A stretch of DNA of 22,008 nucleotides from a virus. Position numbers and translations under genes: made by a program. Under the pieces are notes generated by a model. It was not told the origin of the DNA, did not search any database, and saw only the letters and a program-made list of their open reading frames with translations. The stretch lies in the UHGV virus genome UHGV-1547525; one strand, 5' to 3'. This document shows, one piece after another, positions 4,895 to 20,310 of the stretch (its first letter is position 1; the number at the start of each line of letters is the position of its first letter).

Positions 4895-5824
4895 TCACGG
4901 CAGCCGGGGAATTTTTTTTCTGGTTATCGTAGGTGCTTCATCTGCTGCGGTAATGCTCAATTGAACCTGGATAATGTCGCTATTACCCCCATCAGGCCAT
5001 TCACCTGACACCTGAACCTTCGGGAAACTGAAAGTGTATGCCCCCTCTCCATTCGAAAGCGTGAAGCTGAACGGAACTGTTTCTCCAGTCAGTGTTTTAC
5101 TCCAGATTTCCCACGCGGCTTTAGACCATGAAAGCGTCACCGTACCGGACGGTGTAAAAGTAGTCGGAATATTTGCTCCTGCATAAGGCGAGCCAGTCCC
5201 GATACAACGCTGTGTCTGGAGTTTGTTATCGAACTGAATATCAAAACTGTCGATACAAAAACCGTTACCTCCGGCAACACCATTCAGGCTTACTGCTGAA
5301 ACCTCCTTAAACGAATAACGTAGCTTTCCTGCACTATCCACAGGTTCGCCTTTGATAAAATTCGTATCATCGGCCTTTGATTCCCAGTCCAGTCCGGCAA
5401 AGGTTACGGTCGCTGTAATATCGCCGTCGTTAGGGATCTGCATTTTCCATGAGCCAACCTGCGCTCCTCTGACGACAGAGGCAATTCCGACATCGGACGC
5501 ATAGGTCGCCAGAGAAAATGTTATTCGCTCATTCCCCATTGTCAGAGAATCGCCTGACCATTCCGCGCCGAAACAGGATGCAAGAAAATCATCATGTTGA
5601 CCCCAGCGAAATTTGGTACCAACATCACCGCCGACATCCACAGTGCCAGGCGTCGCCCCCTGAGCCATCCGGGAGCCACCAATCTCATTATTTTCGCCTT
5701 TATTCTGGGTGGGTTTTACTCCCCAGCTTGTGCGTTTTAATAAACTCCAGTCACCACTTGCTGGCGTAGTGCCTGCAACCGTCTCCCGGATAAATGCCGA
5801 GATAACCTTTGCACCTGAACTCAC
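4895..5824 (-). CDS. Major tail (tube) protein, putative
   Basis: 309-aa ORF, GTG start at 5824 preceded by AGGAGG at 5-6 nt spacing. Gly/Thr/Ser-rich composition. Assigned by synteny (immediately upstream of the G/G-T chaperone genes); not lambda gpV-like in sequence. Confidence 0.6.
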   Translation of the reverse strand: MSSGAKVISAFIRETVAGTTPASGDWSLLKRTSWGVKPTQNKGENNEIGGSRMAQGATPGTVDVGGDVGTKFRWGQHDDFLASCFGAEWSGDSLTMGNERITFSLATYASDVGIASVVRGAQVGSWKMQIPNDGDITATVTFAGLDWESKADDTNFIKGEPVDSAGKLRYSFKEVSAVSLNGVAGGNGFCIDSFDIQFDNKLQTQRCIGTGSPYAGANIPTTFTPSGTVTLSWSKAAWEIWSKTLTGETVPFSFTLSNGEGAYTFSFPKVQVSGEWPDGGNSDIIQVQLSITAADEAPTITRKKIPRLP

Positions 5825-14613: not shown

Positions 14614-14865
14614 TTAGTCCTGATTTTTATCCACCCTGAGTAGTTCGCGCAGAGCAAAGGCATCCCCTTTTCTGGCAAGCTTAAACAATGCCGCTCGTAA
14701 CTCGGCTTCACCTTTCGCTCTGCCCTTACGGATGGCCGCATAAAAATCTGTCATTGCTTCCCGATTTTCTTTCAGTCGGTTCAGATCAACATCCAGAACG
14801 TCAGCGATTTGTTGTGCAGTCATCCGGCACGCTGCCAGAGACTCGACTTTCGAATACGGAATCAT
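14614..14865 (-). CDS. Small hypothetical protein, possibly helix-turn-helix DNA-binding
   Basis: 83-aa ORF, ATG at 14865 with GGGGGTG Shine-Dalgarno. Ends 3 nt before the terS start. Overlaps the 3' end of the upstream glycosyltransferase-like gene by 65 nt. No motif recognised with confidence. Confidence 0.35.
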   Translation of the reverse strand: MIPYSKVESLAACRMTAQQIADVLDVDLNRLKENREAMTDFYAAIRKGRAKGEAELRAALFKLARKGDAFALRELLRVDKNQD

Positions 14866-15733
14866 TTGTCACCCCCATTGATATGCAGGGTGTCTTCTTC
14901 CTGTATTTTTCGTGAAGGATTTTTACTGCAGCGTTGTTCCAGGTGACCTGATGGTGAATGCGTTTATGGCTGGCACCCATCAGTGAGATTTTTACGCACG
15001 ACGGCGCATACATGACGGAGTAAAAACTTTTAACGTAGGTTCCGGAATCCAGATACAGCTCGGTCATTCCGCCGCTGTTTTTCTGCGTCTGTTTCTGCCC
15101 TAACTGGACAGCACCGATCGTCATAAACAATTCACCACAGCGACCGAGATTCGTGTACGTATTCACATCCTCGTTAATGCGCCCCATGAATGAGAACGGT
15201 CGATCAACCGAACAGATAAAGCTGTTCATTGCCTTGCGTTTCACCCACGAAGCATGGCCGCCATTGTCACCAAGAAAATCCCCGCCCTGCGACATAGCGA
15301 TGGAAAGAGCAGGTATTGATTCGTAGTACGCCAGCATTTCAGAAAGGATCGCATCCAGTTTCCTTATCGGAAAATAGGCCTGGTCATAGTTGCGATCCAC
15401 CCGAAACTGGAACTCGTGATAATCATCATCGAGCTGAATGAAGTATTTACACCCGACCAGTTTTGCCAGGTCGAAACAGGCATTACGGGCGTAAAAAATT
15501 GAGCGGCGGTCACAGAAATTATCGGCTTCGTCAAAACGACTGGCGATATCGGCTTTGGAAAACACCAGCACCTGTTCACCAAATTCAGCCATGTACTGAT
15601 TCCGTGTCTTATCTTCATCATCAACAACGATAAAAATTTTCCCGGTATAGCCAGCACGACGCAACGTCCGGTAAGTCAGAACTTTGTCCGGTCGCCCGTG
15701 AGTCAGAATAAAGGCGCAAAAATCATCACGCAT
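14801..15733 (-). CDS. Soluble GT-A fold (GT2-like) glycosyltransferase-like protein
   Basis: Ordered GT2 signature: FCAFILTHGRPDKV (N-terminal strand), KIFIVVDDED, ARN...LAKLVGCKYFIQLDDDY (DxD). No obvious transmembrane segment. ATG at 15733 preceded by GAGGAGGAGGAA and overlapping the upstream ParB-like gene by 8 nt. Confidence 0.55.
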   Translation of the reverse strand: MRDDFCAFILTHGRPDKVLTYRTLRRAGYTGKIFIVVDDEDKTRNQYMAEFGEQVLVFSKADIASRFDEADNFCDRRSIFYARNACFDLAKLVGCKYFIQLDDDYHEFQFRVDRNYDQAYFPIRKLDAILSEMLAYYESIPALSIAMSQGGDFLGDNGGHASWVKRKAMNSFICSVDRPFSFMGRINEDVNTYTNLGRCGELFMTIGAVQLGQKQTQKNSGGMTELYLDSGTYVKSFYSVMYAPSCVKISLMGASHKRIHHQVTWNNAAVKILHEKYRKKTPCISMGVTNDSVFESRVSGSVPDDCTTNR

Positions 15734-16517
15734 ATTCCTCCTCCTCACCACCATGCATGATCTCCACCATGCGCTGCGTCATCCGGACAAATCCATTTTC
15801 AATAGCCTGCTGATAATCAATGATCACCAGCGCCGACTCCTCGAAAAAACACTGAATTTCAGAGGGGGCGTGAGCGTAATAGTCCGCAATTCTGCTGAAA
15901 TTAAACACCGTGTGACGTTCTGCCGCACACAGGAGGAATTTCTCAATATCAGGCTCAAGGGACGCCGAACGTATCCGGCTGATCAGCTCCTGAGTTTTCG
16001 TATCGTCGTACAGTTCACTGATATCCGGTTTACCGCCCGACGGCTCATAAACAGGCGTATCAATTTTCGTCGTATACGGCTCCTCCTCATTTCCTGTACC
16101 GGGCAAAACATCCGTCAACAGTTCATCAATTTCTGTCGGGCCGAAGCCTGTCAGGGAGACATCAAAATCAGCATTGATTAGGTCCGACAGCTCCATCCGC
16201 AACAGATCTTCATCCCAGCCAGCATTCATCGGTAGGCGATTATCTGCCAGGCGGTACGCCTTTTTCTGCTCATCCGTCAGGCCAGACAGAACAATGACCG
16301 GAACAGAATCCATTTTGAGCATTTCAGCCGCCATAACACGACCGTGACCCGCAATAATTTCGCCCTTTTCGTCAATCAGCACCGGATTAGTCCAGCCGAA
16401 TTGCTTAATACTTTCTACCAGTTGTGCCACCTGCTCAGTACTGTGCGTCCTGGCGTTGTGCGCATACGGTGACAATTCTTGTAATGGGCGATAGACTATC
16501 TTTAATTTCTCGCTCAT
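15726..16517 (-). CDS. ParB-like nuclease domain protein with unassigned acidic C-terminal half
   Basis: N-terminal ~100 aa YRPLQELSPYAHNARTHSTEQVAQLVESIKQFGWTNPVLIDEKGEIIAGHGRVMAA matches the ParB/Srx-fold N-domain pattern as I recall it. Remaining ~150 aa unassigned. Confidence 0.7.
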   Translation of the reverse strand: MSEKLKIVYRPLQELSPYAHNARTHSTEQVAQLVESIKQFGWTNPVLIDEKGEIIAGHGRVMAAEMLKMDSVPVIVLSGLTDEQKKAYRLADNRLPMNAGWDEDLLRMELSDLINADFDVSLTGFGPTEIDELLTDVLPGTGNEEEPYTTKIDTPVYEPSGGKPDISELYDDTKTQELISRIRSASLEPDIEKFLLCAAERHTVFNFSRIADYYAHAPSEIQCFFEESALVIIDYQQAIENGFVRMTQRMVEIMHGGEEEEYA

Positions 16518-16654: not shown

Positions 16655-18112
16655 TTAGGAGCGCCAAAAAAAACCTGAAAACAATATAATAACAGGATAA
16701 ATTTCAAGGCGACCAAGAATCATAGCTATGCACATTAAATATTTTGCAATGTCATTAAGCACTCCGAATGACGATGCAGTAGCCCCAAAACCTAATCCCA
16801 TATTATTAATACATGCAGCCACTGTTGCAAATGATGTAAGAAAATCATATCCCATACCATTTAACACCAGTATAAAAAACACCGTGAAGAGAGTATAAAG
16901 AAAAAAGAAACTCCATACAGACCTCATTACACGATCTGTAACTATCTTCCCTCCTACATTTACACTCAACAACGCTCTGGGATGAGAAAGCTGATTTATC
17001 TCGTGTTTGCTTTGTTTGAAAAGTATAAGAAATCGAAGTGACTTAATTCCACCACAAGTTGAACCTATACATCCCCCAAAGAAACTTGACGACAGCAAAA
17101 ACACTATCGTGTGCGTGGGCCAGTTTGCATAATCCTGCGTAGCTAAACCATTATCAGTGAGCATGGAGCTGGCAAGAAAAAACGAATGAATAAAACTTCC
17201 ATGCAAGTCATACATACCTATATGCCAGACCTGGAAAGAGGTAACAATGATCACCCCTAAGGCTATTAACAGAAAGAAACGAAGTTCAATATCTCTGATT
17301 AAAGGTTTTATCGTTTTCCTGCTAATAACAATATACCAAAGAGTGAAGTTGAAAGCCGATAGCAGGGAAAAAGAACCAGCCACCAGCTCAACCAAATAGT
17401 TATTAAAATATCCGATACTCTCGCTATGAGTTGAGAAACCACCAAGCGAAACTGTGGAAATCCCGTGACAAATAGCATCAAACAAAGGCATTCCTGCAAG
17501 TCTATAACAGACAATACAAGCAATACCTAATAAAGAATAAGTTATCCACAGTGTCCGTGACGTATCGGCCAGGCGGGGAGTGAGTTTGTCATCCTTAAAT
17601 GGCCCCGGCATTTCTGACTGATAAAGCTTTGCACCACCAATACCCAATAATGGCAATACAGCAACCGCCAGAACAATAACTCCTAAACCACCTATAAAAT
17701 TTAACTGTGACCGATAGTACAAATATGCCCGAGGTAATGAACTAACATCATCAATTACAGTTGCTCCTGTTGTTGTTATTCCAGAAACCCCTTCAAACAG
17801 AGCATCAATGAACGTTAAATTAAGTTCTGAGTCAATCCATAAAGGGAATGCACTAATAACAGAAAACAAAATCCAAAACATTACAATTATAATAAACCCA
17901 TCACGGGTACGTAATTGAATGCCAGATTTCTTAGTTGTATACCACGCTCCGCCACCAATGCAAAAAAATATAACGAAAGTTATAAAGAAAACGAACAGGC
18001 TTTTTTCTTTATAAAACAATGCTACAACCATTGGTGGCAACATTGAAAGACTATAGAGCCAAACCAGGAACCCACACATATGAGTAACAACTCTTACATG
18101 AGATGTATTCAT
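16655..18112 (-). CDS. trkG: Trk-family potassium uptake membrane protein (TrkG of Rac-type prophages)
   Basis: 485-aa polytopic membrane protein from ATG at 18112 (MNTSHVRVVTHMCGFLVWLY...); the ORF-track start at 18130 is a TTG extension. TrkH/TrkG-like repeated pore-loop architecture. Visibly AT-rich relative to the flanking phage genes. Adjacent to Rz/Rz1 remnants, as I recall for E. coli K-12 Rac. Confidence 0.8.
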   Translation of the reverse strand: MNTSHVRVVTHMCGFLVWLYSLSMLPPMVVALFYKEKSLFVFFITFVIFFCIGGGAWYTTKKSGIQLRTRDGFIIIVMFWILFSVISAFPLWIDSELNLTFIDALFEGVSGITTTGATVIDDVSSLPRAYLYYRSQLNFIGGLGVIVLAVAVLPLLGIGGAKLYQSEMPGPFKDDKLTPRLADTSRTLWITYSLLGIACIVCYRLAGMPLFDAICHGISTVSLGGFSTHSESIGYFNNYLVELVAGSFSLLSAFNFTLWYIVISRKTIKPLIRDIELRFFLLIALGVIIVTSFQVWHIGMYDLHGSFIHSFFLASSMLTDNGLATQDYANWPTHTIVFLLSSSFFGGCIGSTCGGIKSLRFLILFKQSKHEINQLSHPRALLSVNVGGKIVTDRVMRSVWSFFFLYTLFTVFFILVLNGMGYDFLTSFATVAACINNMGLGFGATASSFGVLNDIAKYLMCIAMILGRLEIYPVIILFSGFFWRS

Positions 18113-18249: not shown

Positions 18250-18699
18250 TTACTTTAAACACTGCTCGGTTATGTATTGCTGAGCACCTTCAAGTTGGGC
18301 CTGCATCATTACCAGTCGTTCCCGGAGGGTGAAATAATCCCGTTCAGCGGTGTCTGCCAGTCGGGGGGAGGCTGCATTATCCACGCCGGAGGCGGTGGTG
18401 GCTTCACGCACTGACTGACAGACTGCTTTGATGTGCAACCGACGACGACCAGCGGCAACATCATCACGCAGAGCATCATTTTCAGCTTTCGCATCAGCTA
18501 ACTCCTTCGTGTATTTTGCATCGAGCGCAGCAACATCACGCTGACGCATCTGCATGTCAGTAATTGCCGCGTTCGCCAGCTTCAGTTCTCTGGCATTTTT
18601 GTCGCGCTGTTCTTTGTAGGCGATGGCGTTATCACGGTAATGATTAACACCCCATGACAGGCAGACGACGATGCAGATAACCAGAGCGGAGATACCAGA
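18250..18699 (-). pseudogene. rzpR: Rz (i-spanin) remnant lacking its 5' end and start codon (rzpR-like)
   Basis: From ...[33 protein letters not shown]... through [47 protein letters not shown]...EQCLK the translation tracks lambda Rz as I recall it. The similarity breaks about 7 codons in, and there is no in-frame ATG/GTG/TTG upstream before a TGA. Confidence 0.8.
18309..18494 (-). CDS. rzoR: Rz1 (o-spanin) lipoprotein, embedded in the Rz reading frame
   Basis: 61-aa [59 protein letters not shown]... with lipobox-like VVGC and a proline run, matching lambda Rz1 as I recall it. Embedded in the +1 frame of Rz. Confidence 0.8.
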
Positions 18700-18766
18700 A
18701 TGTCTCGATTCTAGGTATTCCGCCAGGAATCTCGTTCCAGAAATGAAACATCAGGTTCGCCAGTAC

Positions 18767-18798
18767 CAGAAACAACAAAACCCGCTCAATGGCGGGTT
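18767..18798 (-). terminator. tR'-like intrinsic terminator downstream of the Q-like gene
   Basis: Minus strand AACCCGC-CAUUGA-GCGGGUU followed by UUGUUGUUUCUGG, about 85-115 nt after the Q-like stop. Confidence 0.45.
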
Positions 18799-18881
18799 CT
18801 GGTAAAGTTCATGCGCTTGGTTCGCCTCGCGATACAGCTTTGCGAAGCATACCGGAATTGAAGCAGTTTATGCGTAAAAAA

Positions 18882-19424
18882 TCAAGCTATTTTTTGAGCA
18901 AATGATTCTCGCATGGGAATATATAGGGCATACTCAGCAACAGCCAACCAATTAGCAATTCGCTTTTCGCATGTGCTAAAACACCACTCAGGATGTGCAT
19001 CATTTAGCAATTCAGCCATTTTGCGCTTAGTCATCCCCCGTCCTTCATACCGTTGCCGGAGGACACTAATCAATCCAGGATGCTCTGCCAGCACCTCACT
19101 TATGACTCTATCAATACATAACGCCTCTGCATCAGTACAATGCGCCAGCCAGGTCTTTTGCTTGCCATTGATCATCTCTCGCAAAAACGCTTCCAGCTCA
19201 GGTTTCTCTATTCCCGCTTTTTTCATCCTGCGCAGGGCTTCATTGACGGCTGTTTTCGTCAATTTTTTGGATGCCAGCAACTGGTTAAACATATTTCCCG
19301 TCTTACCGCCGCCAATATACGACCAGCGCCCCCACATGCGCAGTTTTCCCTGAATCCAGACACTTTCCAGCGTGGTGAGACGAAGGTGTTCCCCGCTTTT
19401 GCCTGTATTTGTTGGGTAAATCAT
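18882..19424 (-). CDS. Late-gene antitermination protein Q-like (tentative)
   Basis: 180-aa ORF from ATG at 19424, overlapping the upstream stop (ATGA); the ORF-track start at 19544 is an upstream extension. Assigned mainly by position: last gene before the promoter/terminator-like leader and lysis remnants, after nin-region-like genes. Confidence 0.4.
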   Translation of the reverse strand: MIYPTNTGKSGEHLRLTTLESVWIQGKLRMWGRWSYIGGGKTGNMFNQLLASKKLTKTAVNEALRRMKKAGIEKPELEAFLREMINGKQKTWLAHCTDAEALCIDRVISEVLAEHPGLISVLRQRYEGRGMTKRKMAELLNDAHPEWCFSTCEKRIANWLAVAEYALYIPMRESFAQKIA

Positions 19425-19711
19425 AAATAACCTTCCTTTCTCCAGATTTCTTGTGTGCGAAAAACACCTTCTGCATGCATCAGGCGTAATTCTTCTTTGG
19501 TGTAATCGCTGGTTTTTACCCGCCCGTCGATTAGATCGTGGCATGAGCTACAGGCTATCGCCGCCTGCATATCGTGTGGTTTTGTCGCTGTTCCGCACGT
19601 CCCCGCCAGCCTGTAATGCGCCAGCACAGAGGTTTCGGGATTGTGATTGCAGTAGCCAGGGATTCTGATCTGGCACATCTGGCCTTTAGCCGCTTTACGT
19701 AAATTCACCAT
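19421..19711 (-). CDS. YbcO-like (DUF1364) putative zinc-binding nuclease of the nin region
   Basis: 96 aa with CQIRIPGYC ... CSSCH cysteine pairs. Length and motifs resemble the prophage-encoded YbcO family as I recall it. Start overlaps the upstream stop (TAATG). Confidence 0.55.
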   Translation of the reverse strand: MVNLRKAAKGQMCQIRIPGYCNHNPETSVLAHYRLAGTCGTATKPHDMQAAIACSSCHDLIDGRVKTSDYTKEELRLMHAEGVFRTQEIWRKEGYL

Positions 19712-20310
19712 TACGCAAACTCCAGTAGTTGTGCGGCCACATTTTCAACTTCCTCCTGAGAGGAGAATTTACGGAACAGGATCCAGTTCCACAGCACATT
19801 CAGTACAGATTTATAAACCTGCTGAAACTCGACTTCGTCCATATTCGCAAAAGCGATGGATTTTGCCCGACGCCCACGGCTACCGTCCGGATAAATATGC
19901 TCGGTGTAAAATCCGGCCTGAATGGTTACCCACTCGCGGAAAGCCTCAAACGACTTTAGCAACGCCGTATCCCGGGTTCTACGAGTCGCAACGGTGTTAA
20001 GGTATTGCTCTGCGGCATCACTCAGGGCTGGAGTGTGTTCCCGACCTACTGATTCGCACAGGTAATCAACGAAGCCCGATACCAGTTTTCGTTCGCGAGG
20101 CGTGATCGCCCCACCGACCGGAGTCCAGTAATCGAATCCCAGTTGCAGGAGTTTGAAAAAACGCTTGTGGAATGCGTAGTTACGCACACGCTTAAAGTCT
20201 GCGTGTATCCACTCACCTATTTTGATTTGATGCAAAAAATCGCAACTCTCCGGCGTCGCCGGGAGAAGTAAACCAGAAGAGGTTTGTTTGACCAGTTGTA
20301 TATGCGCCAT
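19711..20310 (-). CDS. nin-region hypothetical protein (DUF1367-like, tentative)
   Basis: 199-aa ORF, ATG at 20310, translationally coupled to the YbcO-like gene. Family assignment is from memory only. Confidence 0.35.
   Translation of the reverse strand: MAHIQLVKQTSSGLLLPATPESCDFLHQIKIGEWIHADFKRVRNYAFHKRFFKLLQLGFDYWTPVGGAITPRERKLVSGFVDYLCESVGREHTPALSDAAEQYLNTVATRRTRDTALLKSFEAFREWVTIQAGFYTEHIYPDGSRGRRAKSIAFANMDEVEFQQVYKSVLNVLWNWILFRKFSSQEEVENVAAQLLEFA

Follow-up and report, generated by a model that had tools for sequence, protein, structure and literature searches.

A 1,789-bp deletion of the lysis cassette in a Rac-family prophage and a recurrent deletion end in Rz

In phage lambda, the lysis region is arranged as Q - pR'/tR' - S - R - Rz/Rz1, with a terminated leader after the Q-type gene and Rz1 in the +1 frame of Rz. 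The Rac prophage of Escherichia coli K-12 reads ydaW - rzpR pseudogene - rzoR - trkG, and intact prophages of the Rac family are present in APEC E12049 (CP126952) and strain L9 (CP142044); the record 'Escherichia phage vB_EcoS-666R9' (ON470614) is closely similar to them in gene order.

We analysed 22,008 nt of the UHGV virus genome UHGV-1547525, hereafter the window. Judged from its sequence, it represents the late region of a lambdoid E. coli prophage belonging to the Rac family. It shares the architecture of lambda but lacks S and R and has a headless Rz; moreover, its Q-like protein belongs to the DUF1133 / Phage_antitermQ family and not to the lambda Q family, and trkG and ParB-like/TAGT genes are found between Rz and the terminase genes. 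The prophage family and the order Rz'-Rz1-trkG are those of K-12 Rac, in which Rz1 (rzoR) is likewise intact; unlike the window, K-12 Rac has lost Q, the leader, the nin-region genes, the head genes and most tail genes. The prophages of APEC E12049 and strain L9 have the same gene order as the window with 99.4-99.7% identity, as does vB_EcoS-666R9 with 98.8% identity over the window. The intact prophages differ from it by the presence of a 1,789-bp block and by a longer tail tube protein.

The phage genes of the window are all on the minus strand. In the order of transcription, a DUF1367 gene and a YbcO-family gene are followed by the Q-like gene, the leader, the headless Rz with Rz1, and trkG, then by ynaK (ParB-like, full length), a TAGT-family gene, the small and large terminase genes and the portal gene, and further on by the P22-like capsid gene, head-completion genes, the tail tube gene, ydaY, the tape measure gene and the first tail-tip genes. 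The succession DUF1367 - YbcO - Q-like - lysis - trkG - ynaK - terminase - P22-like capsid - ydaY - lambda-like tail is the synteny of the Rac family, and in the relatives that share the window's junction the Rac element sits at ttcA with intR/xisR. Rfam and tRNA scans of the window gave no matches.

The deletion and the genes around it

The features of the region discussed below are the following.

19711 to 20310, minus strand: DUF1367 gene
19421 to 19711, minus strand: YbcO-family gene
18882 to 19424, minus strand: Q-like late antiterminator gene, DUF1133 family, 180 aa, intact (Pfam/PHROG profiles)
18918 to 18947, minus strand: sigma-70 promoter-like site, TTGGCT, 18-nt spacer, TATATT (a 9/12 consensus match only)
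18694 to 18881, minus strand: late-leader remnant, 188 nt, from the Q stop codon to the junction (alignment with an intact relative)
18766 to 18801, minus strand: tR'-like intrinsic terminator (hairpin 18801-18776, T run to about 18766)
18693 to 18694, no strand: deletion junction, also candidate hot-spot site 1 (alignment of both parental sites)
18250 to 18693, minus strand: 5'-truncated Rz (i-spanin) pseudogene, codons 8-154 (profile and alignment)
18309 to 18494, minus strand: Rz1 (o-spanin lipoprotein), complete 61-aa ORF in the +1 frame of Rz (Pfam Rz1, 2e-19)
16655 to 18112, minus strand: trkG (TrkH-family K+ transporter), intact (Pfam TrkH, 5.7e-144)

The closest complete E. coli genomes aligned with the whole window as two pieces, between which the intact relatives carry 1,789 extra bases. 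In the prophages of strain L9 (L001) and APEC E12049 (L004), this block contains a gene for a 189-aa protein (phrog_11870, no Pfam match), a small ORF in reverse orientation, a lambda-family holin of 113 aa (Pfam Phage_holin_3_1, 1.9e-27), a GH24 endolysin of 158 aa (PHROG 90 at 3e-64) and codons 1-7 of an Rz that is full length (154 aa) in these relatives. Searching all 22 kb with the proteins of the intact relative (tblastn), we recovered homologues of neither the 189-aa protein nor the holin and endolysin, so that the window lacks both the holin and the endolysin of a lambdoid lysis cassette. The original prediction of a decayed lysis cassette, with a Q-like gene and a tR'-like leader kept and holin and endolysin missing, was thus confirmed.

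The junction lies at 18693/18692, the TA at 18694-18693 being common to both parents (2-bp microhomology). With a slash marking the break, the parental leader reads ...GAGACATTCTGGTA/AAATTG..., the parental Rz ...ACCGCGATTA/TCTCCGCTCTGG..., and the window passes from the leader into Rz as ...CATTCTGGTA/TCTCCGCTCTGG... The deletion junction had been expected near 18700-18720; the alignment with intact relatives bore out the deletion and moved its position. The idea that the breakpoint adjoins a trkG insert had to be abandoned: trkG occupies the identical place in the intact relatives, outside the deletion, with its start codon about 580 bp from the breakpoint, and is unrelated to it. Of 5,426 complete E. 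coli genomes, 367 keep both flanks, and three of these (GPEC206-621, BKQ37E and LR881940) contain the full length of a 140-nt probe spanning the junction; the junction was also present in one further assembly (L061), and its recurrence in three complete genomes and this assembly argues against an assembly artefact. The 9-mer CTGGCGGAA occurs 25 nt and 41 nt upstream of the two window breakpoints and may or may not have helped the deletion.

The Q-like protein is 100% identical to that of the APEC E12049 prophage. Its ORF matches Pfam DUF1133 (2.8e-109), PHROG 753 'anti-termination protein Q-like' (1e-79) and, barely above the cut-off of 26 bits, Phage_antitermQ (28 bits), which places it among Q-family proteins; against solved Q structures the protein gave no significant sequence match (best Q21, E = 0.15). 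The promoter-like site sits within the 3' end of the Q-like gene and is a candidate late promoter, in a region where the scan returned 3 such sites versus 1.8 expected by chance. No Q-loading element for the DUF1133-type Q family was recognisable by sequence. Functions of Q and of the late promoter are thus attributed here from family membership and consensus matches. The leader remnant equals that of the intact relative except for 2 substitutions and carries, shortly 3' of the Q-like gene, an intrinsic terminator with a 10-bp stem (6 G-C pairs) whose hairpin as RNA has a computed energy of -18.4 kcal/mol (z = -3.0). The predicted short distance between the Q stop codon and Rz was recovered, at 188 nt instead of about 170.

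Similarity to lambda Rz begins at 18693, corresponding to residue I8, and continues with 92% identity over residues 8-153. The remnant matches the PHROG 13 Rz profile from 8 to 154 of 154 and the PF03245 family (Phage_lysis, 4.8e-53), the periplasmic coiled-coil domain being retained. The ribosome-binding site, the start codon and a complete N-terminal membrane anchor are missing with codons 1-7, which held the only N-terminal positive charge (R3) and the start of the anchor. The upstream frame meets a stop, and the first canonical start codon in frame (ATG, GTG or TTG) is at 18555 and would give a 101-aa product without membrane anchor; Rz is therefore truncated and startless, as had been proposed. 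So is the complete state of Rz1 confirmed: this o-spanin ORF (PF06085) has a Shine-Dalgarno sequence AAGGAG 7 nt upstream, a lipobox VVGC and a proline-rich part with PPPPP. It survives only because it is embedded in DNA that was retained.

When all annotated proteins of the APEC E12049 prophage were searched against the window (tblastn), the late, head and tail proteins were full length with 98.9-100% identity; among the 20 compared, the sole case not full length was the C-terminus of the tail tube protein. A run of A8 in its gene, versus A9 in APEC E12049 and ON470614, causes a frameshift near the 3' end that alters the last 16 or so residues (309 aa versus 320 aa). The full virion module that had been announced is thus present as regards the head and tail genes inside the 22-kb window, from tape measure to terminase, apart from this frameshift; beyond the 22 kb would lie the early region, the genes of the tail tip and fibres, and any further prophages.

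The Rac remnants of the three complete genomes sharing the junction are far more decayed than the window. That of BKQ37E, at ttcA, has an IS1 in recE, has lost the replication genes and shows capsid and fibre genes as fragments only. Because the window and the BKQ37E lineage have private trkG SNPs in common and this lineage has lost much more, the window is, as far as these SNPs can be read, an earlier state than the BKQ37E-type remnant, in which the lysis cassette is lost and all else in view is open.

Recurrent deletion ends in Rz

Nine different deletion alleles, those of the window and K-12 Rac included, end in Rz at two TTA/TCT sites 15 nt apart. Site 1 (ATTA/TCTCC) was used by 4 alleles, the window and K-12 Rac among them, and site 2 (GGTTA/TCTGC) by 5, so that at least seven other independent deletions end at the window's Rz nucleotide or 15 bases further on. 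These deletions extend from 0.7 to more than 16 kb and occur in Rac, in DLP12 and in at least one other lambdoid prophage. Their left ends differ, being located in the tR' leader, the DUF1627 gene (twice), recT, recE (twice), the ydaF/ydaG region, DLP12 essD and one further gene. Besides the junctions of the window and K-12 Rac, the sequences are as follows.

18677 to 18678 in the window, no strand: candidate hot-spot site 2, GGTTA/TCTGC, intact here, right end of five alleles elsewhere
Allele with left end in recT: ...GAGTTA/TCTCC
Allele with left end in recE: ...GGCAATA/TCTCC
Allele with second left end in recE: ...GGGCCAG TA/TCTGC
Allele with left end in the DUF1627 gene, 35 nt beyond the K-12 point: ...CCTCAGC/TATCTGC
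Allele with left end in the ydaF/ydaG region: ...CCGGGTG/TCTGC
Allele outside Rac, DLP12 essD holin: ...GCCGGGTA/TCTGC (IMG/VR pattern scan)
Allele outside Rac, further gene: ...CCAGGGTA/TCTGC (IMG/VR pattern scan)

In K-12 Rac, Rz is cut at the same nucleotide as in the window (...GGTA/TCTCCGCTCTGG), and the left end of the deletion, in the DUF1627 gene (ydaW), is some 9.4 kb to the left of the window's; the intact DUF1627 gene reads ...GCATCGGTA/GCGGAA... and K-12 ...GCATCGGTA/TCTCCGCTCTGG... The Rz'-trkG segment of K-12 equals that of the intact prophages L001, L021 and L050 at all variable sites, and differs from the window type at 8 sites, 5 of which are private to the latter. With the K-12 type on the haplotype of intact prophages and trkG SNPs private to the window type, neither allele is nested in the other, and they appear to be independent events. 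A derivation of the K-12 allele from that of the window through the shared GGTA is disfavoured, this GGTA being native to the DUF1627 gene and the right flank of K-12 being of the intact haplotype.

Seven of the nine alleles were obtained from contigs in which a 101-aa residual Rz ORF had been called, a search sensitive to truncations anywhere in Rz codons 1-53; a further 227 or so loci that we inspected proved intact. The stretch of codons 1-53 contains 8 TA dinucleotides, of which only 2 served as deletion ends. By our own arithmetic, the chance that these seven positionally unbiased alleles would fall on two positions only is about 6e-10 if ends are uniform over 160 nt and about 2e-3 if they are limited to the 8 TA dinucleotides, for a sample of alleles that is small and not systematically drawn. 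Alleles a8 and a9 were found by patterns detecting site 2 only, and we thus left them out of this statistic, to which they add nothing. A scan of species-representative genomes returned only two K-12-type loci, a metagenome scan only K-12-type loci and one intact SNP variant, and we found nothing in the literature on rzpR truncation or a shared breakpoint.

These observations make it likely that the end of the deletion in Rz is not random and reflects a nucleotide-precise hot spot at the 5' end of lambdoid Rz, an explanation that complements that of a single deletion in the window. Breaks or template switches would recur in Rz and excise lysis cassettes, often with much more DNA to the left. 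In favour of such a hot spot are the right ends confined to two sites despite the diversity of the left ends, most of them from the unbiased search, the different SNP haplotypes of the K-12-type and window alleles, and the allele pairs a2/a3 and a5/a6, in neither of which one member can be derived from the other by further deletion. The microhomologies measure 0-4 nt and are mostly TA, with GGTA at 4 of the 7 left ends that have TA. Against it, the sample is small and unsystematic, none of the candidate mechanisms examined accounts for the sites, and at least one other loss of lysis genes stops elsewhere: in L273, 1,221 bp are missing between the 189-aa gene and the 3' end of R, and Rz is intact. 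Because this deletion ends in the 3' end of R, the hot spot is not the sole route of cassette loss. On balance, we favour the view that the first 40 nt of lambdoid Rz are a nucleotide-precise hot spot for large deletions, and that loss is channelled by a specific break or template switch instead of random decay.

Both sites are part of an imperfect inverted repeat, GCAGAGTAACCGCG-ATTA/TCTC-CGCTCTGGTTA/TCTGC. The fold predicted for the single strand has an 8-nt loop with site 1 at its centre, and a helix junction at site 2; this geometry is suggestive of a hairpin mechanism, but the stability of the fold did not exceed that of shuffled sequence (z = -0.75 and -1.2). The Chi-like GCTGGCGG and the shared 9-mer CTGGCGGAA upstream of the window breakpoints are absent at the other alleles. 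Action of the Rac integrase at a secondary site was discarded, the att core TTGTTCAGGTTGTATTGTTCTTTCTT being unlike TTATCT, as was a Pin/Hin-type invertase pseudo-site, the breakpoints not being central in any 12-2-12 site when compared with half-site consensus sequences. Adjacent deletion mediated by insertion sequences was set aside too, with no IS at or next to any junction and the IS3 copies of the relatives located elsewhere. Terminase (pac) cleavage at Rz is unsupported, and the small terminase gene is 4 kb away. GenBank 'phage' records starting near Rz look like contig or prediction boundaries: four such records begin 15 nt upstream of the Rz ATG with Rz intact, and ON032529 continues into the chromosomal genes sitAB-uspF-ompN-nifJ.

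As a side observation, a G is found at position -4 in 7 of 11 break sites, a faint hint of a type II topoisomerase. Such an enzyme, a hairpin-directed nuclease and a template switch during replication are candidates for the break or switch.

Probable consequences for lysis and possible origins of the deletion

We assign a probability of about 0.88 to the reading that the window underwent a single illegitimate deletion of 1,789 bp joining the leader to Rz codon 8, an early step of prophage decay that would leave the prophage lysis-defective. One event using the TA microhomology would have fused Rz codon 8 to the late leader, at a point some 70 nt past the tR'-like terminator, and would have taken with it the 189-aa gene, the lambda-type holin, the GH24 endolysin and the ribosome-binding site, start and first seven codons of Rz. 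Since the Q-like gene, the candidate late promoter and the terminator are retained, late transcription should still reach Rz', Rz1, trkG and the virion genes; on induction, RNA polymerase modified by Q would read into them. Rz1 would be made without its partner and has no known role alone. In the absence of holin, endolysin and i-spanin, the cell could not lyse and particles would stay trapped, a phenotype resembling that of lambda S-defective or S- R- Rz- mutants. The prophage is thus very probably lysis-defective, and the core of the predicted inability to lyse agrees with the loss of holin, endolysin and Rz codons 1-7 relative to the intact relatives.

Two alternatives bear on the lysis functions. 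The prophage could be productive if a second lambdoid prophage of the same cell, or genes beyond the window, provided lysis in trans, and potential helpers are common: the R-Rz junction of this family occurs in 4,607 of 5,426 genomes, at up to 7 places per genome. Such a helper would, however, have to be co-induced; the three complete genomes sharing the junction have lost the DLP12 endolysin and keep a truncated DLP12 holin, and no second lysis cassette is annotated in the complete intact prophage of APEC E12049. We thus consider lysis in trans unlikely. The other alternative, translation of Rz' from the non-canonical ATC at 18693 into a working i-spanin, draws on PGAP, which in other genomes gives the identical sequence an ATC start and the label 'lysis protein' (WP_373457564.1, 147 aa). 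In our view this start is a convenience of annotation, given the missing ribosome-binding site and a product that would be deprived of part of its anchor: no Shine-Dalgarno sequence lies upstream, ATG, GTG and TTG are all lacking, and residues 1-7, with R3 and the beginning of the membrane anchor, would be missing. A spanin would in any case cause no lysis without holin and endolysin, and we give this alternative hardly any credence.

A further possibility is that the loss of lysis was selected, the host keeping trkG and other useful prophage genes while disarming the killing functions. In all nine deletions that truncate Rz, the endolysin is gone and the holin gene is lost wholly or for the most part, while the DNA to the right of the breakpoint is kept, including Rz1 and trkG in the seven Rac alleles; the window-type junction also persists in lineages whose Rac otherwise went on to decay, and in those genomes the DLP12 cassette is deleted as well. 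On the other hand, near-identity to intact prophages and open late ORFs are just as compatible with a recent neutral event, few complete genomes carry the allele, and a mutational hot spot could yield recurrence without selection. Domestication, which had been suggested from the sequence of the window, is therefore not demonstrated, and we hold it to be possible but rather doubtful. Under the reading of a single recent deletion, a strain carrying the window allele would be a natural S- R- Rz- lysogen, useful for testing the assembly of Rac-type particles, and the window a clean, datable example of the first step of prophage decay.

Comparison with known decayed lysis cassettes

The DLP12 cassette (essD-rrrD-rzpD) offers a parallel at another locus. 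In 8 complete genomes it carries a deletion ending at Rz site 2, and all three genomes with the window-type Rac junction have this deletion, which spans from about essD codon 22 to Rz. DLP12 differs from Rac by its argU site and its holin of the S21-like family, and the left end of its deletion falls within the holin gene. If the hot spot is real, the route by which bacteria neutralise prophages would be set in part by a local property of the DNA, and illegitimate recombination in E. coli could be studied at Rz, a site amenable to experiment.

Decay of the lysis cassette is itself a known class, the rzpR of K-12 Rac being annotated as a pseudogene, and the finding of one more case is ordinary when taken alone. 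The allele of the window is a new, small and early addition to this class, and the part deserving follow-up is the recurrent, nucleotide-precise breakpoint that it shares with K-12 Rac.

Deletion ends within Rz

The right ends of nine distinct deletion alleles were confined to two TTA|TCT sites (window 18693/18692, site 1, and 18678/18677, site 2), which are spaced 15 nt apart and both lie within Rz codons 1-13. These alleles (in the window and at loci L003, L054, L056, L059, L060, L062, L189, L190, and L192) are carried by Rac, DLP12, and another lambdoid prophage. No two of their left ends were alike, with GGTA present in four of them.

In three IMG/VR contigs (L221, L222, and L237), the Rz N-terminus was intact yet divergent, reading GTGAGTCGTATTAAGGCAATTATTGCGTCTGTCATTA|TCTGC. 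Identity of these Rz genes to the common Rz sequence started precisely at site 2, so that this part of the proposed hot spot is also the position of a natural mosaic boundary.

Copies of the 9-mer CTGGCGGAA were observed upstream of both breakpoints of the window deletion, at a distance of 25 nt from the left one and 41 nt from the right one, each followed by loosely similar sequence (window 18624-18763 versus 3700-3760 of L001, the intact locus of strain L9). The two copies are out of register with respect to the deletion junction.

DLP12 lysis cassette in genomes sharing the Rac junction

All three complete genomes with the window-type Rac junction also carried a deletion in DLP12 that joins essD at about codon 22 to Rz site 2, with rrrD gone:

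NZ_CP170328.1 (BKQ37E) 2229096-2229147 (L281 9001-9052): DLP12 essD-Rz fusion, also in GPEC206-621 and LR881940

Since this allele was present in 8 of 5,426 genomes, including all three with the Rac junction, the Rac deletion arose in a lineage already without a second lysis cassette.

Database records and the tail tube gene

The 5'-truncated Rz corresponds to RefSeq WP_373457564.1 (window 18250-18693; L002 3251-3694; L052 20071-20514), called by PGAP as an intact 147-aa "lysis protein" with ATC as the start codon, an annotation that masks its pseudogene status. GenBank record ON032529.1 ("Salmonella phage SPF_0923, complete genome"; L278 and L279) begins within Rz and extends across trkG and the virion genes into chromosomal genes of E. 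coli, namely sitAB, uspF, ompN, and nifJ. Rather than a phage genome, it resembles a segment of chromosome or a predicted region.

A frameshift was observed in one virion gene of the window:

4895-5824, minus strand: tail tube gene, with a homopolymer near its 3' end at about 4912-4919

The homopolymer is A8 in the window versus A9 in APEC E12049 and GenBank record ON470614, which changes the frame past residue 304, so that the protein has 309 rather than 320 aa. A sequencing error could explain the difference, as could a real mutation in the Ig-like part at the C-terminus.

Other genes compared with K-12 and Stx phages

Two further regions are considered here:

14801-16517: ynaK and a TAGT-family/glucosyltransferase-like gene, between trkG and the terminase genes
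L001 4881-5450: 189-aa protein gene (phrog_11870), absent from the window, expected between 18694 and 18693

The ParB-like ynaK is full length in the window (263 aa) and the TAGT-family gene is present (310-317 aa, PF20691, phrog_842), whereas in K-12 ynaK is shortened to 87 aa and the TAGT-family gene is missing. The two genes possibly form a DNA-modification pair. The 189-aa protein, which contains hydrophobic stretches and had no match in Pfam, was removed in the same deletion as the lysis genes. Stx phages carry their toxin genes between the tR'-type terminator and the holin; the 189-aa gene of L001, located after the tR'-like terminator and before the holin, occupies the same position.
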